From: Candidatus Cryptobacteroides excrementipullorum
GTDB taxonomy: Bacteria > Bacteroidota > Bacteroidia > Bacteroidales > UBA932
Length of the DNA stretch: 64,000 bases
Direction of reading: 5' to 3'
NCBI GenBank assembly: GCA_017695065.1
Contig: JADILZ010000041.1
Location: forward strand, 1,135 to 65,134
The notes under the pieces are model-generated. The model worked only from the letters and a program-made list of their open reading frames with translations. It made no database searches and had not been told where the DNA came from. A program made the position numbers and the translations under genes. The first letter of the stretch is position 1; every line of letters starts with the position of its first letter. Below, piece by piece: positions 2,539 to 64,000 of the stretch.

Positions 2539-4713
2539 ATGGCTGCATTTAGACAAAGAGCTTTGGATGAGGCCGCTTCCCATACAGCGGAGCGCTTCTA
2601 TGTTGAAAAAGGGCCGGTATCTCATTACTTCGGCCAGAATGTATTTGATCTCGACAAGATGAGAGGATACATGTCCCAGCAGGCCTATGAAGCCGTCTTG
2701 TCTGCAGTGAAGTTCGGAGCAAAGCTTGACAGGAGCGTGGCTAACGAGATTGCTTCCGGGATGAAGTCCTGGGCCATCGAGATGGGAGCTACCCACTACA
2801 CTCACATGTTCCAGCCGCTTACAGACGCCACAGCAGAGAAGCATGAGGCCTTCATTTCGGTGAAGGACGGCAAGGCATTCGAGAAATTCAACGGCAGCGC
2901 ACTTGTCCAGCAGGAGCCTGATGCATCCAGCTTCCCTAACGGAGGACTGCGTAACACCTTCGAGGCCAGAGGCTATTCTGCCTGGGACCCGTCATCGCCG
3001 GTGTTTATCCTTGACGGTACACTGTGCATCCCGTCGGTGTTCGTCTCATATACGGGAGAGGCTCTCGACACCAAGGTGCCGAACCTCAAGTCCCTCCAGG
3101 TCCTCAGCGAGGCAGCCACGGCTGTGGCGAACCTTTTCGACGAGTCTGTCAAGAGCGTGAATGTCAATCTCGGTCTCGAGCAGGAATACTTCCTGATAGA
3201 CGAGTCCCTGTATAACGCCAGGCCGGACCTCGTGCTTTGCGACCGTACGGTTATCGGACATACCTCAGCCAAGGACCAGCAGCTCGAAGACCATTACTTC
3301 GGGGCTATCCCTTCCAAGGTGAGCGCCTTCATGAAAGACTTCGAGACAGAGGCATACAAACTGGGGATACTTCTCCAGACACGTCATAACGAAGTGGCTC
3401 CCAACCAGTTCGAATGTGCTCCGGTGTTCTGCGGCGCCACCAAGGCGATTGACCAGAACATGATGCTCATGATCATCATGCAGAAGGTCGCCGAGAAGCA
3501 CCACCTGAAGGTCATCTTCCATGAAAAGCCCTTCGACGGGGTGAACGGTTCCGGAAAGCACTGCAACTGGTCCATGGTCACAGACACGGGAGTGAATCTC
3601 CTTTCACCGGGGAAGACCCCGAACAAGAACCTCCAGTTCCTGTCATTCTATGCTGCTGTGGTTAACGCTGTCTATGAGCATAATTTCCTGCTGATGACCA
3701 GTGTGGCCACCCTCAGCAATTCATACCGCCTCGGAGGCCACGAGGCCCCGCCTGCGGTCATGTCCATCTTCTCGGGCTCGACTCTTTCCAGCATTTTCAA
3801 GGCAATCGACAACATGGAGACCCTCCCTGAGGCCGAGGCCGGTCTCGAGTCCATAAAGATAGTGAACTCCATCCCTGAGATATTCCCTGACAATACGGAC
3901 AGGAACAGGACATCTCCTTTTGCCTTCACCGGCAACAGGTTCGAGTTCCGTGCCGTAGGCTCTTCGCAGAATGTCGCTTCAGCCACATATATCCTTAATT
4001 CGATTGTAGCTGAGAGCCTCAGGAAATTCCGCAGTGAAGTTGATTCCCTCGTGTCAAAGGGAGAGGACCTCTCTACTGCAGTGATGAATGTAGTGAGGAA
4101 GTTCATACACGATTCGAGGAATATCATGTTCGAGGGGAACGGATACAGCAAGGAATGGGAGGCTGAAGCTGAGAAACGCGGCCTGAGGGCTGTAAGGAAT
4201 GTCCCTGAGGCTTATGAGGTATATCACGAGCAGAAGACAGTGGACCTTTTCTCAAAGCTCGGTGTACTCGCTCCGAATGAGGTCGAGGCCAGGTTTGAGG
4301 TGCTCAACGAGACATACGTGAAGAAGCTCCAGATTGAGGCCAGGGTGATAGGGGACATCTGTCTCAACCATGTCCTTCCTGCAGCCGTAAGGTATCAGAA
4401 CATCCTCATTGAAAACGTGCGCGGGGTGAAGGAGATTTTCGGGGACGAGTACAAGAGCCTCTGTTCTTCCGAGTTCTCGACCCTCAAGAAGATCTCCTGC
4501 CTGACCAATGCCATTTCGCATGATGTCGAGGAGCTCGTGGAGGCACGCAAGAGGGCCAACAGGATAGAGGACATCGCAGAAAGGGCCAAGGTATATTCAC
4601 ATGAAGTAAAGGATCTGATGGACAAAGTCAGATACAGTGCCGACCATCTCGAGATGATAGTTGATGACGAGATGTGGCCTTTGCCTAAGTACCGCGAACT
4701 TCTCTTCATCTGA
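2539..4713 (+). CDS. glutamine synthetase, type III (GSIII)
   Basis: The 724 aa length is typical of Bacteroidetes GSIII. Conserved blocks include GLEQEYFLID, NEVAPNQFE and HEKPFDGVNGSGKHCNWS. Confidence 0.9.
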   Translation: MAAFRQRALDEAASHTAERFYVEKGPVSHYFGQNVFDLDKMRGYMSQQAYEAVLSAVKFGAKLDRSVANEIASGMKSWAIEMGATHYTHMFQPLTDATAEKHEAFISVKDGKAFEKFNGSALVQQEPDASSFPNGGLRNTFEARGYSAWDPSSPVFILDGTLCIPSVFVSYTGEALDTKVPNLKSLQVLSEAATAVANLFDESVKSVNVNLGLEQEYFLIDESLYNARPDLVLCDRTVIGHTSAKDQQLEDHYFGAIPSKVSAFMKDFETEAYKLGILLQTRHNEVAPNQFECAPVFCGATKAIDQNMMLMIIMQKVAEKHHLKVIFHEKPFDGVNGSGKHCNWSMVTDTGVNLLSPGKTPNKNLQFLSFYAAVVNAVYEHNFLLMTSVATLSNSYRLGGHEAPPAVMSIFSGSTLSSIFKAIDNMETLPEAEAGLESIKIVNSIPEIFPDNTDRNRTSPFAFTGNRFEFRAVGSSQNVASATYILNSIVAESLRKFRSEVDSLVSKGEDLSTAVMNVVRKFIHDSRNIMFEGNGYSKEWEAEAEKRGLRAVRNVPEAYEVYHEQKTVDLFSKLGVLAPNEVEARFEVLNETYVKKLQIEARVIGDICLNHVLPAAVRYQNILIENVRGVKEIFGDEYKSLCSSEFSTLKKISCLTNAISHDVEELVEARKRANRIEDIAERAKVYSHEVKDLMDKVRYSADHLEMIVDDEMWPLPKYRELLFI

Positions 4714-6978: not shown

Positions 6979-7563
6979 CTACAGCAGTCCGGCTTCATGG
7001 AACATTTTCCCGTATATTTCCGCTTTCTTTTCCAGCGCCAGAGGGTATGCCCTGGATGTGGATGGCATCCTGTAGAAACGCAGTTCCCTGCCTGATCGGG
7101 TGATATTCAATGGTGTCCACCCTCCTGTTGCAGGCTTTTCACATCCGAAGACGGAGCAGACTGTCTCTGTGGATTTCTCTCCGGTCGTGACCAGTGTCCT
7201 GCAGTCCGGAATCCTTTCCAGGAGCCCCTCCAGGTCAGTTGCCTCCACTATCTGCAGGAATTTGTCCGATGCGTTGTCTTTCAGCCTTATCACTTCCGAT
7301 GCGCTGTCATACAGTGCGATTCCCTTGTCGTTGCAGAATGCGGTGATAGAGTCCTTGTCGAAATGTTTCCTGTCCGGTGCGAAGAAATGCTCCTTGTCGG
7401 AAAAGAAAAGATATCCGACAATCCTCCACATGTCATTAATGAAGTTGGGGTAAAAGAAGTCCATCGACCATTTCTCCCTTTTCGGCGGGAAGCTCCCGAG
7501 CATAAGCACTTTTGCATCAGCCGGCAGGAATGGCTCTAAAGGATGTCTTTCAGGTGTCATCAT
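6979..7563 (-). CDS. uracil-DNA glycosylase superfamily protein (G/U-mismatch or deoxyinosine glycosylase-like)
   Basis: Contains the LMLGSFPP...FFYPNFINDMWRIVG motif block seen in Bacteroidetes UDG-family proteins. The start was trimmed to MMTPERH (7563). Confidence 0.7.
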   Translation of the reverse strand: MMTPERHPLEPFLPADAKVLMLGSFPPKREKWSMDFFYPNFINDMWRIVGYLFFSDKEHFFAPDRKHFDKDSITAFCNDKGIALYDSASEVIRLKDNASDKFLQIVEATDLEGLLERIPDCRTLVTTGEKSTETVCSVFGCEKPATGGWTPLNITRSGRELRFYRMPSTSRAYPLALEKKAEIYGKMFHEAGLL

Positions 7564-60903: not shown

Positions 60904-61608
60904 ATGGCCATGCAGAACGTCTATACCGAAGAAGAACTGTACTGGAGCCGCGGAGGCAACACCGGTACTCTTCCTGAACGTATAACTCCGTCACAGGTCA
61001 ATGTCCTGGCCGATGGGGAAATCTTCGTCTTTGGCAGCAATTTTCAGGGCCGACATATGGGCGGCGCTGCACGCGTTGCTCAGGAGAAATACGGAGCCGT
61101 CTGGGGTATAGGAGAAGGCCTGCAGGGCCAATCCTACGCCATACCGACGATGGAAGGCCTGGAGAATCTCGCTCCGGCCGTCCAGCGCTTCACCTCCTTC
61201 GCCCGGCAGCACAAAGAATTGAAGTTCTTCGTCACCGCCATCGGCTGCGGCATTGCCGGCTATCAGCCCGAAGAGATTGCGCCTATGTTCCTGAATGCGG
61301 CCTATCTGCCGAATGTCTTCCTGCCGCTGTCCTTCTGGAAGATCATCATGCATATCCCCGGCGCAGAGGAAAGTGTCCGGTCCTTCGCCCAGTCCGTCTT
61401 GGATGTCTGCCGATACGCCCACCGCAACAATCCGCCCACCTGGACCACCGCCACCGACGAAGCCCTCTTCAACGGCCTTGAGCGCGACCAGCACTGGCAG
61501 CTCGGCATCCTCCTGGGAATCATTTCGCCGGCTGATGAAGAGCCGCAGACGAAGGAACTGCCGGCAGAACTCAAGCAGAAGATCCTTGACGCATTGAAGA
61601 AGGCCTGA
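60904..61608 (+). CDS. A1S_2505-like phage-associated protein with a ~100-aa C-terminal extension
   Basis: IFVFGSNFQGRHMGGAARVA...GLQGQSYAIPT...FFVTAIGCGIAGY matches my recollection of the A1S_2505 family of phage non-structural proteins (GSNxxGxHGxGAA / SYAIPT / TxIGCGLAG). Confidence 0.55.
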   Translation: MAMQNVYTEEELYWSRGGNTGTLPERITPSQVNVLADGEIFVFGSNFQGRHMGGAARVAQEKYGAVWGIGEGLQGQSYAIPTMEGLENLAPAVQRFTSFARQHKELKFFVTAIGCGIAGYQPEEIAPMFLNAAYLPNVFLPLSFWKIIMHIPGAEESVRSFAQSVLDVCRYAHRNNPPTWTTATDEALFNGLERDQHWQLGILLGIISPADEEPQTKELPAELKQKILDALKKA

Positions 61609-61964: not shown

Positions 61965-61997
61965 TCTGGACGTCCATAGTTGCATGATTAAAAACAC

Positions 61998-62705
61998 ATG
62001 AACATGAAAAAGGTCTTACAATACACCCTCCTGCTGGTCATCGCCATTGTTTCGCTTTCTGCCTGTAAATCAAATGAGCAGAAAGCAGCAGCATTAATCA
62101 AGGATTACATGTTCAAGAATCTCTTTGATTATGAGAGTTATGAGCCAATAGAGACATCTATAGATAGCGCTTATAACCAGCCTATGATGAATAGTCAGAT
62201 TCTTGCTCTTGCCTTTGATTCGGTAGAGAAAGAGAAAGAAGCAGAAGAGCATCATGAAGAATATGAAGACGCATCTCGTACTAGGGATATTTGGAGCGGC
62301 GGTTGGTCCTCATACAGCACAAAGGAATATAATAAAGCTCGTAAGAAAGCAATAGAAGAGCTCATTGCCTCGATTGAGGGCACTAGGGCATCTGTCAGAA
62401 ACTTGAAGCAGATCAAATCTATGGCCGATACGCTTTCATCAGGATTTATCGGATGGTCTGCCATCCATAGTTTCAGGTGTAATACGCAGGGTGGTAATAA
62501 AACTATCGGGAACTATCTCTTCATCTTCGATAAAAGTTTCAAAACCATCCTCAATGTATTTGATGCCAATGACGAAGAACTGGTTGCAGCTATAGATAAA
62601 ATCGGGACAGCCCAGGCTATGACCGACGAACAGTTTATGGAGCTGGAAGAGCAGTTTACTGGCCAGATTACCCAACTGCAAGACGGGTTAGCCAAAATAA
62701 AATAG
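61998..62705 (+). CDS. hypothetical lipoprotein (235 aa)
   Basis: Signal peptide plus lipobox (LLLVIAIVSLSAC). The remainder was not recognised. Confidence 0.6.
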   Translation: MNMKKVLQYTLLLVIAIVSLSACKSNEQKAAALIKDYMFKNLFDYESYEPIETSIDSAYNQPMMNSQILALAFDSVEKEKEAEEHHEEYEDASRTRDIWSGGWSSYSTKEYNKARKKAIEELIASIEGTRASVRNLKQIKSMADTLSSGFIGWSAIHSFRCNTQGGNKTIGNYLFIFDKSFKTILNVFDANDEELVAAIDKIGTAQAMTDEQFMELEEQFTGQITQLQDGLAKIK

Positions 62706-62787
62706 TCATTAACGTTCTGGTCTGAGCCTGGGAATAGCAGTTCTTCGGGTCAAGACCATAATAGGGAAAACAGTTTGATGCTAAAAG

Positions 62788-63324
62788 ATGGAGATTGGGC
62801 TTAATCATATACATAGAACCTATGGTTTCCCGCCACTGTTGTGCGATGAACCAAGAATCTTGATTCTGGGCACACTGCCTGGTGGGGAATCACTGGAGCA
62901 TCGGCAATACTACTATTCCAATTCCAACCGGATTTGGAAGGTGTTGTGCCACATTAAAGGAGAGCCGATGCCGATAGCCTATGCCCAGAAACAGGCCCTG
63001 CTTGCGAAGTATCACATCGTCCTCTGGGACTACTACGAATCCGCTATCCGGCCAGATAGCAGCAATGACAAAGACATCCGGGACGGTCATCCCAACGATA
63101 TACCAGCCTTCCTTGCCGCTCATCCTACCATCAAGACCATTGGCATCAACGGATTTGGGAAGTACAAAGACTTCGGCCGCAAGATTGCGAGAGAGCTGGC
63201 GCAAATACCGGCCCTTGCCGATGTCCGTGTACTCCGGCTTCCGGAAACCAGTGGAAGCAACAAGAACTACGGCTGGGGATATGTAGAAAACCTTGCCCGG
63301 GAATGGGCACATATCTTTGACTGA
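62788..63324 (+). CDS. UDG-superfamily DNA glycosylase (family-6 / hypoxanthine-DNA-glycosylase-like)
   Basis: ILILGTLPGGESL...QYYYSNSNRIWKVL matches the GxxPGxxS...YYxxxxNxFW pattern of DNA-deoxyinosine (hypoxanthine) glycosylases. ETSGSN lies near the C-terminus. Confidence 0.65.
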   Translation: MEIGLNHIHRTYGFPPLLCDEPRILILGTLPGGESLEHRQYYYSNSNRIWKVLCHIKGEPMPIAYAQKQALLAKYHIVLWDYYESAIRPDSSNDKDIRDGHPNDIPAFLAAHPTIKTIGINGFGKYKDFGRKIARELAQIPALADVRVLRLPETSGSNKNYGWGYVENLAREWAHIFD

Positions 63325-63329
63325 CGCTT

Positions 63330-63689
63330 ATGTACGAGAATGAATCAGCTGCTGTCCGTGCGGGAATAGACTTTCTGCAGGCTCTGACCGAGAAAGATTA
63401 CCTCCTCGATCCCACCTTCGATGTCCTGGATCTGGAGCAGAAGCTGATTGAGATTCAGGCCGATGTCAACTTCCTCATCTCCAACCTGCCAGTTGAGGCC
63501 ATTGACGATGACCAGGAGAGGGAGGAAGAGTATCCCGGCGATTTCGAAGACGGCGAAGAACTGGAGGACGAAGTGGTGGAATGCGAGAAGCTGATTGCTC
63601 AAGCTACGGGGCTCCTGGCCGCAGTCCGCGAGCATTATCTGCCAAGTCCATCAATCCAGCCGTTGTGGTTTGATGTAGAAATAGAATGA
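63330..63689 (+). CDS. hypothetical, strongly acidic protein (119 aa)
   Basis: By hand count, about 33 Asp/Glu versus about 6 Lys/Arg. It starts 5 nt after the glycosylase stop. Its last 9 codons and stop lie inside the first CRISPR repeat. Confidence 0.45.
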   Translation: MYENESAAVRAGIDFLQALTEKDYLLDPTFDVLDLEQKLIEIQADVNFLISNLPVEAIDDDQEREEEYPGDFEDGEELEDEVVECEKLIAQATGLLAAVREHYLPSPSIQPLWFDVEIE

Positions 63690-63879
63690 ATTACAACGAA
63701 GCCGCAGCCGTGGCACTGAACAAAGCAGTCGTGGTTTGATGTAGAAATAGAATGAATTACAACTGCAGGATAGACACCCCAGTCCGCTCTACAGTTGTGG
63801 TTTGATGTAGAAATAGAATGAGTAATAACGCAGATGTACTGTACATACAGCATCATCGTGTTGTGATTTGATGTAGAAA
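63662..63879 (+). CRISPR. CRISPR mini-array: three full 36-nt repeats plus one decayed terminal repeat, with three 30-nt spacers
   Basis: Repeats lie at 63662-63697, 63728-63763 (1 mismatch), 63794-63829 (3 mismatches) and 63860-63879 (first 20 nt only, 1 mismatch). The consensus is GTTGTGGTTTGATGTAGAAATAGAATGAATTACAAC. The spacers are exactly 30 nt and unrelated to one another. Confidence 0.85.
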
Positions 63880-64000
63880 AGCCATATGTGTCCGGTAAAA
63901 ATCCGGACTAGTTATTATAAAGTATAACAATTAAAATAAAGTAGGTTCGGTAGAACCATCCGGTTCATTGACAATATTGCAGTTAGGTTTACAGAACAGT

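Follow-up and report, generated by a model that had tools for sequence, protein, structure and literature searches.

The family-6 hypoxanthine (deoxyinosine) DNA glycosylases (HDG) belong to the superfamily of uracil-DNA glycosylases (UDG), with a prototype from Methanosarcina barkeri. Family 6 is the one family of UDG that has been reported to lack uracil activity, and it acts on hypoxanthine (PMC5387724). Other proteins of the UDG fold are anti-phage effectors, and include Brig1 (PMC11078745), Brig2 (10.1101/2025.10.29.685425) and Brig3, which works with the operon partner BapA, an enzyme whose glucosyl hydrolase activity broadens the range of substrates (10.64898/2026.02.25.707755). A third group consists of small, very acidic protein inhibitors of UDG that mimic DNA, namely Ugi (PBS1/2), p56 (phi29) and SAUGI (staphylococcal SCCmec), which are genetically linked to a UDG-superfamily enzyme, target the family-1 UNG of another genome or host, and are not operon partners of their target. 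Here we describe a two-gene locus in a stretch of 64,000 nucleotides (nt) of Candidatus Cryptobacteroides excrementipullorum (assembly GCA_017695065.1, contig JADILZ010000041.1, positions 1,135 to 65,134), hereafter called the window. An HDG gene is followed there after 5 nt by a gene for a small, strongly acidic protein. Comparison of sequences across genomes and metagenomes supports this HDG-acidic pair as a real, evolutionarily maintained module, in which the window's copy of the partner has been cut short by a remnant of a clustered regularly interspaced short palindromic repeat (CRISPR) array.

The first gene of the pair (62788..63324, forward strand) encodes 178 amino acids (aa) and is very probably an HDG. 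Its product matches TIGR04274 (NCBIfam) with 104.9 bits, residues 13-158 aligning to profile positions 1-138 of 150, where the equivalog cut-off is 80 bits. The solved structure PDB 2l3f_A is matched at E=4.9e-16, the match to MUG is weak, and the Pfam UDG score of 23.0 bits falls marginally under the gathering score of 24.3. The TIGR04274 match bears out the UDG-superfamily identity proposed in a sequence-only reading of the window. An alignment with 17 relatives contains 33 invariant columns, including the blocks LILG-x-x-PG and N-R-x-W, and the ratio of nonsynonymous to synonymous substitution rates (dN/dS) is 0.07-0.19. By family membership, the predicted substrate should be hypoxanthine, or possibly another non-canonical purine. 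The window enzyme is like the described family-6 enzymes in its equivalog-level TIGR04274 score and its match to 2l3f_A. It differs from them as a sporadic accessory gene in a defence-rich region, beside a commoner paralogue elsewhere in the genome, and in having a dedicated partner gene, with relatives that are fused either to that partner or to a 186-aa N-terminal domain. We know of no partner described so far for an HDG.

Orthologues of the window HDG were found in 6 of the 60 other species sampled in the genus. The sequence-only reading had named a UDG-family paralogue at 6979-7563 and had taken the HDG copy to be dispensable for housekeeping repair. The paralogue is a UDG relative and is far commoner in the genus (35/60 species), which makes it reasonable to regard the window HDG as an extra, non-housekeeping copy; the paralogue itself is a weak relative, reaching 34 bits against TIGR04274, below the cut-off of 80. 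Contigs from digesters and activated sludge (L047-L052, L056) encode an HDG with an additional N-terminal domain of ~186 aa, as in a 364-aa open reading frame (ORF) at L049:1901-2995 in which TIGR04274 covers residues 199-345. The same ~186-aa domain occurs as a gene of its own at L003:9489-10049, two genes downstream, behind a PAD_porph/agmatine-deiminase-like gene. The domain had no match in Pfam, NCBIfam or PDB, and so represents a second unexplained fusion partner of HDG.

The HDG stop codon (TGA) and the ATG of the acidic gene are separated by the 5-nt spacer cgctt (63325..63329, forward strand), which is kept in the form cgcYt across related HDG loci. The acidic ORF (63330-63689, forward strand) encodes 119 aa, with 33 Asp/Glu against 6 Lys/Arg and a net charge of about -27. 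The positions of both ORFs, the gap and the residue counts were all confirmed on recount. With dN/dS of 0.03-0.06 over its N-terminal 105 codons, the acidic ORF is evidently a real gene under strong purifying selection and not a chance frame, and 268 homologs were found in a collection of 5.8 billion proteins. Nearly all of these homologs are 149-161 aa long, and they align to only the first ~89-93% of the window protein. The full-length homolog P0001 is 99% identical to it through residue 111, after which the window protein continues with LWFDVEIE and a stop. DNA homology to L001 and L002, the full-length loci that are closest, begins at 61987 and extends at 97% identity as far as 63661, where it ends at this junction; the base after the boundary at 63661/63662 is precisely the first of a CRISPR repeat. 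The ORF is therefore read as a chimera: codons 1-111 (63330..63661, forward strand) are the authentic part by homology to P0001, comprising an acidic three-helix N-domain and the first residues of a linker, and the tail LWFDVEIE plus stop (63662..63689, forward strand) is encoded by the repeat and stands in place of the native linker, KKKR patch and membrane helix. The 119-aa ORF is evidently not the native protein: members of the family have ~150 aa, and the window copy breaks off at codon 111, a truncation that is almost certainly real. The exact 119-aa chimeric protein recurs on 19 contigs, which come from independent samples and were built with different assemblers. A misassembly at the gene/CRISPR junction was considered and rejected because of this recurrence. 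No copy of the missing 3' end of the acidic gene was found anywhere in the window's genome. The ORF is a selected gene with many homologs; what the sequence-only reading took for the complete partner is a truncated chimera of a protein whose native form is predicted to be membrane-anchored.

The acidic proteins form a small family. A profile search of 1.84 billion representatives returned 66 clusters only, and the family was absent from 400 genomes sampled across 236 genera of the order. Within the window's genus, 13 of the 401 species sampled have it. On this distribution the gene is evidently accessory, rare and sporadic, and belongs to a single group of uncultured Bacteroidales, in which a few gut and rumen members carry it. 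Searches of Pfam, NCBIfam, PHROGs and PADLOC assigned the protein to no family, the one PADLOC match of 13.7 bits being meaningless; the family is undescribed and unnamed. Its DNA is unusually conserved relative to that of neighbouring genes. The N-domain (residues 1-105) carries the motifs M-Y/F-E-N-E, NLP-V/Y-E and ELEDEVVEC, the first two of which read MYENE and NLPVE in the window copy. Two main architectures follow this domain. In the tail-anchored form (~150 aa), the acidic N-domain is followed by a linker rich in Pro, Ala, Ser and Thr, a KKKR-type basic patch and a hydrophobic C-terminal helix (hydrophobicity 2.2-3.5 in a 17-residue Kyte-Doolittle window); on account of this helix the native form is predicted to be a tail-anchored membrane protein with a cytoplasmic N-domain. 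In the soluble form (~235 aa), the same N-domain precedes a helical C-domain, with ~25% identity to the anchored type. Other relatives comprise a short-loop variant and remote proteins of ~98 aa. A short-loop relative of 141 aa, also tail-anchored, lies at L009:620-2998 (species G021) in the order WYL-like 291-aa ORF, HIRAN-like ORF, acidic gene, UmuD (NF007621, 118 bits) and Y-family-polymerase-like ORF. The WYL-like and HIRAN-like labels at this locus are a reading of the sequence, and NCBIfam found no family for either ORF. The setting of this short-loop relative is DNA-damage tolerance rather than a glycosylase context.

The pairing with HDG recurs across the deep divisions of the family. 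In the genus-wide sample, six species have an intact long-loop member, four of the anchored type (G000, G663, G477, G618) and two of the soluble type (G735, G569), and in each of them HDG is the gene immediately upstream, at a distance of 3-5 nt. The divergent member P0124 likewise has HDG upstream, with an identical 5-nt gap. Among 32 metagenomic loci (JGI/ENA) with enough upstream DNA, HDG ends 5 nt before the partner ATG in 17. Natural in-frame fusions of HDG and the acidic protein were also found (P0184, P0186, P0187; 413-416 aa, 76-100% mutual identity). Residues 5-159 of the fusion proteins match TIGR04274 at 108 bits, and residues 163-400 open with the partner's Met-Phe-Glu-Asn-Glu and align over 233 residues to the soluble sub-family (33% identity, E=6e-28). 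Two genes that stay adjacent across deep divergence, and whose fusion is maintained as well, present classical evidence of joint action, and we conclude that HDG and its partner probably work together. Two HDG orthologues that lack the partner are followed by other acid-rich proteins, one of 185 aa and tail-anchored (L014:785-1342) and one of 163 aa with an N-terminal transmembrane segment (L015:2013-2504). These were rejected as remote members of the family (hhalign probability <1%), and the resemblance may be analogy or coincidence.

Compared with Ugi, p56 and SAUGI, the acidic family shares small size, a very acidic composition and genetic linkage to a UDG-superfamily enzyme, and it differs in its membrane anchor or extra domain and in its occasional fusion to the enzyme. 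By analogy with these inhibitors, charge-based competition with DNA is plausible. The window HDG resembles Brig1-3 in being a UDG-fold accessory gene among defence systems, and Brig3-BapA is a precedent for a glycosylase that works with an operon partner. In contrast to BapA, which is enzymatic, the acidic partner has no catalytic signature, and the window HDG belongs to a recognised repair family. PADLOC, whose library predates the Brig proteins, gave no match. What is new here is the acidic protein family as a non-enzymatic, sometimes fused glycosylase partner; the glycosylase cassette itself is of a known kind.

The locus reads as a small accessory two-gene operon. We tentatively propose that its second product would bind the enzyme made from the gene before it and serve, through its charge, as a brake or a tether. 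The flexible Asp/Glu loop of the acidic N-domain would compete with DNA for the basic DNA-binding face of the enzyme, and the native partner would sit on the cytoplasmic face of the membrane by its C-terminal tail anchor. Such a brake would keep a potentially genotoxic, base-excising enzyme off the chromosome until it is needed, and at other loci the same brake would act on McrBC- or WYL-type DNA binders. We infer the physical binding and the direction of the effect (a brake rather than an activator), and likewise the substrate and a part, if any, in defence against phages. As a whole, a brake or tether is the best explanation we can offer, held with less than even confidence; that the partner is specifically an inhibitory DNA-like competitor is somewhat doubtful. 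The acidic N-domain is nearly unchanged (dN ~0.02) behind HDG alleles that differ by dN 0.18 (25% apart). Where one near-invariant N-domain stands behind HDG, McrC and WYL genes, a generic electrostatic, DNA-like interaction fits better than a co-evolved interface.

Structure prediction gave the N-domain the fold of a generic helical bundle. The AlphaFold2 (AF2) model (predicted local distance difference test, pLDDT, 80) is an antiparallel three- to four-helix bundle with helices at residues 3-21, 32-52, 55-67 and 73-103, and the acidic stretch is its least confident part. A PDB profile search with the family returned coiled coils at best (E=0.26); Foldseek searches of PDB and BFVD gave no match at E<=0.001 and only generic three-helix bundles (Habc/spectrin-like); and searches of the ESM Atlas by features and by shape returned only the family's own cluster and generic syntaxin-like bundles. 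In the AF2 model of the fusion P0184, the alpha/beta glycosylase domain (pLDDT 80-93) and the soluble-type C-domain (pLDDT >90) are well defined. A complex prediction for HDG and the acidic N-domain scored 0.00; its controls were not run, and it gives no verdict and is used neither way.

Several observations weigh against a partner dedicated to restraining HDG. At 15 of the 32 metagenomic loci there is no HDG upstream, and a near-identical acidic gene instead follows McrC, BREX BrxL with WYL, or a PbeC-like gene at a gap of 2-46 nt. Taking McrC, BREX and PbeC-like loci in that order, the acidic gene (near position 3001 in each) lies 7 nt after McrC (L031), 2 nt after BREX PglZ-BrxL and a WYL regulator (L033/L039) and 46 nt after a PbeC-like ATPase (L054). 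Short-loop and remote relatives adjoin HIRAN-like/UmuD-UmuC or other genes. In the opposite direction, HDG orthologues occur with no acidic partner in species G070 (74% identity) and G075 (63% identity), and from these two sets of loci it follows that neither gene needs the other. The co-occurrence proposed as a check in the sequence-only reading therefore holds in part, for the six species, the 17 loci and the fusions, and fails at the unpaired loci. Homology between loci starts only ~7 nt before the acidic ATG, and these last 7 nt (gacgcYt) are identical after HDG and after McrC, a sharp recombination boundary. Where the window (62788-63659) was compared with L003, L027, L030 and L073, synonymous divergence (dS) was discordant between the two genes, being 0.67 for the acidic gene and 2.6 for HDG in L003, and 0.56 and 0.09, respectively, in L027. 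Together with the ~7-nt boundary, this indicates that recombination has re-created the adjacency again and again, and a recombination hot spot could account for part of it. The promiscuity of the N-domain fits functional independence equally well, and an enzyme fused to its own inhibitor is unusual. The P0184 model has no confident inter-domain packing (predicted template modelling score 0.48) and a disordered acidic loop. To our knowledge, protein inhibitors act on family-1 UNG and not on family 6. None of Ugi, p56, SAUGI, Ocr and ArdA appeared among the fold or profile matches, so that the comparison with known mimics in the sequence-only reading finds no sequence or fold match. An inhibitor or DNA-mimic role of the partner is plausible only by analogy.

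The main rival explanation is functional independence, which we consider rather unlikely though serious. The acidic protein would then be a membrane protein with a role of its own, for example in abortive infection or stress, at a hot spot that swaps upstream DNA-targeting cassettes (HDG, McrBC, BREX, Pbe), with the conserved 5' end of the acidic gene serving as the homologous anchor for the swaps. That upstream genes change while the acidic-gene DNA stays very similar is expected from such swapping, as are the onset of homology so close to the ATG, the discordant dS, the variability of both flanks and the sporadic occurrence of the family. Independence leaves unexplained the three maintained in-frame fusions and the adjacency of HDG, at a fixed 3-5-nt gap and in six species, to both of the ~25%-identical sub-families. 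The fusions bear also on a positive role, in which the partner would be an adaptor or tether that recruits or localises HDG and other DNA enzymes, activating or targeting instead of inhibiting them, either at a membrane-proximal entry site of phage or conjugative DNA or as a scaffold for downstream repair. One would sooner expect an adaptor than an inhibitor to be fused to the enzyme, and a tail anchor with a cytoplasmic N-domain would suit such a function. This adaptor role is nonetheless unlikely, as the soluble sub-family and two anchor-less truncations persist and membrane location is thus not essential.

The sequence-only reading had suggested a toxin/antidote-like or regulated defence pair, or an anti-restriction or anti-CRISPR factor. 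A classical toxin/antidote, or an Ocr/ArdA-like protein directed against the defences of other cells or elements, would accord with the net charge of about -27 and with neighbours that include restriction-type genes and, directly adjoining, a CRISPR remnant; we consider both very improbable. A strict toxin/antidote dependency is contradicted by the HDG orthologues that have no partner and by the partners that have no HDG. As to anti-defence, the gene is co-oriented with and tightly behind defence genes and not in the leading region of an invading element, the protein resembles neither Ocr nor ArdA nor any known Acr fold and had no match in PHROGs or PADLOC, and the CRISPR array beside it is no functional neighbour but a dead remnant that a deletion brought there. 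Whatever the intact family does, the copy in this genome could be a decaying, functionless pseudogene, since it has lost ~40 C-terminal residues, including the anchor, and gained a foreign 8-residue tail. We regard this as improbable in view of the complete conserved N-domain (residues 1-105) and the unchanged chimeric allele on the 19 independent contigs. A second independent truncation, P0016 (121 aa, 7 contigs), ends in the linker and loses only the anchor, so that another anchor-less allele is common, and a sub-family exists that naturally lacks an anchor. The two truncations and the soluble sub-family suggest that the N-domain is the functional core, and with an intact N-domain and a widespread allele the window partner may still work as a soluble version. 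At L069:5001-7270, a P0016-type truncation is accompanied by an inserted pair on the opposite strand, a DEDD 3'-5' exonuclease and a WYL/WCX regulator.

The brake or tether can be extended to the other loci. The acidic protein would then be a portable, usually membrane-anchored safety catch, a DNA-like decoy placed behind unrelated effectors (HDG, McrBC, BREX-associated WYL, Pbe ATPase), which it would keep idle at the membrane and which infection or DNA damage would set free. HDG, the most frequent companion of the acidic protein, would in that case be an antiviral enzyme that excises a modified purine, and not a housekeeping repair enzyme. This extension is speculative, and we consider it to be distinctly unlikely.

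The remnant that truncates the acidic gene is an orphan type II-C CRISPR array (63662..63882, forward strand) with a 66-nt periodicity. Its 36-nt repeats lie at 63662-63697, 63728-63763 and 63794-63829, and a last, half-degenerate copy starts at 63860; its 30-nt spacers lie at 63698-63727, 63764-63793 and 63830-63859, all on the forward strand. An identical repeat occurs in a larger array that adjoins Cas9 (RuvC_III and HNH) and Cas1 in a Bacteroidia metagenome-assembled genome from cow (L011), and a near-identical one in a 17-repeat array of Candidatus Cryptobacteroides avicola (L010); both arrays likewise close on their cas-distal side with a degenerate repeat. The match to the cas9 locus and the degenerate cas-distal repeat identify the window sequence as the cas-distal remnant of a type II-C array. 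It is like such arrays in its 36-nt repeat, 30-nt spacers and degenerate terminal repeat, and unlike them in that it has three spacers, that no cas1 or cas9 was found, and that the acidic gene joins it in frame on the cas-proximal side. Neither Cas1 (PF01867) nor Cas9 (TIGR01865) had a match in the window's genome assembly (97.8% complete, 111 contigs), and no further copies of the repeat were found elsewhere in it. The same three spacers are present in all strains that carry the chimera, and the array is evidently a dead orphan remnant, frozen at three spacers. Recombination of the acidic gene with a type II-C array evidently removed codons 112 to ~150 (linker, KKKR patch and anchor) and left a soluble 119-aa partner ending in 8 repeat-encoded residues. 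An exact junction would be expected if the ancestral array had held a spacer derived from the acidic gene, with spacer-protospacer recombination then deleting most of the array along with the cas operon. Of the 23 spacers in the related arrays (L010, L011), none matched the acidic gene or the genome, and a spacer-derived origin of the junction is unsupported. No convincing phage targets of the spacers were found. To the right of the array, window positions 63880-64000 diverge completely from L066:2110-2381 after ~22 nt of the terminal degenerate repeat, and contigs of the window lineage mostly end ~330 nt past the acidic gene, which suggests a multi-copy element or a second breakpoint right of the array. 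The contig of the window itself stops 13 nt beyond it.

The block (61987..63661, forward strand) over which the window's DNA is 97% identical to that of the closest full-length loci holds a lipoprotein-like ORF in addition to HDG and the acidic gene, and the flanks on both sides of it vary between strains. The lipoprotein-like ORF (61998-62705, forward strand) has a weak PG1828-type signal and matches phrog_21933. Farther to the left, a 234-aa ORF at 60904-61608, preceded by a small Zn-ribbon ORF, is a homolog of the A1S_2505-family phage non-structural protein, N-terminal domain (NF049995, 140.6 bits); the closest relatives (L001) have different sequence instead of this stretch. A Vsr gene and a Nudix gene lie upstream of HDG in the window, and defence-type genes at related loci include McrBC, BREX, Pbe, and WYL with a DEDD exonuclease. 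The region is evidently variable and defence-rich and the HDG copy accessory, in agreement with what the sequence-only reading had said of the glycosylase and its setting, and with the six species in which it was found.

It is only of late that UDG-fold glycosylases have come to be seen as anti-phage effectors, and the way in which cells spare their own DNA from them is largely unexplained. The locus described here makes this question of self-damage testable with two small proteins. If the acidic protein were to gate access to DNA by charge mimicry, and to do so for several defence enzymes that are unrelated, this would amount to a new principle of regulation in defence islands, with the acidic protein as the first protein regulator of a family-6 UDG. 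Otherwise, the locus still provides a clean annotation, in which the HDG is accessory, its partner represents a small protein family that is new, and recombination with a CRISPR array has cut a gene short.

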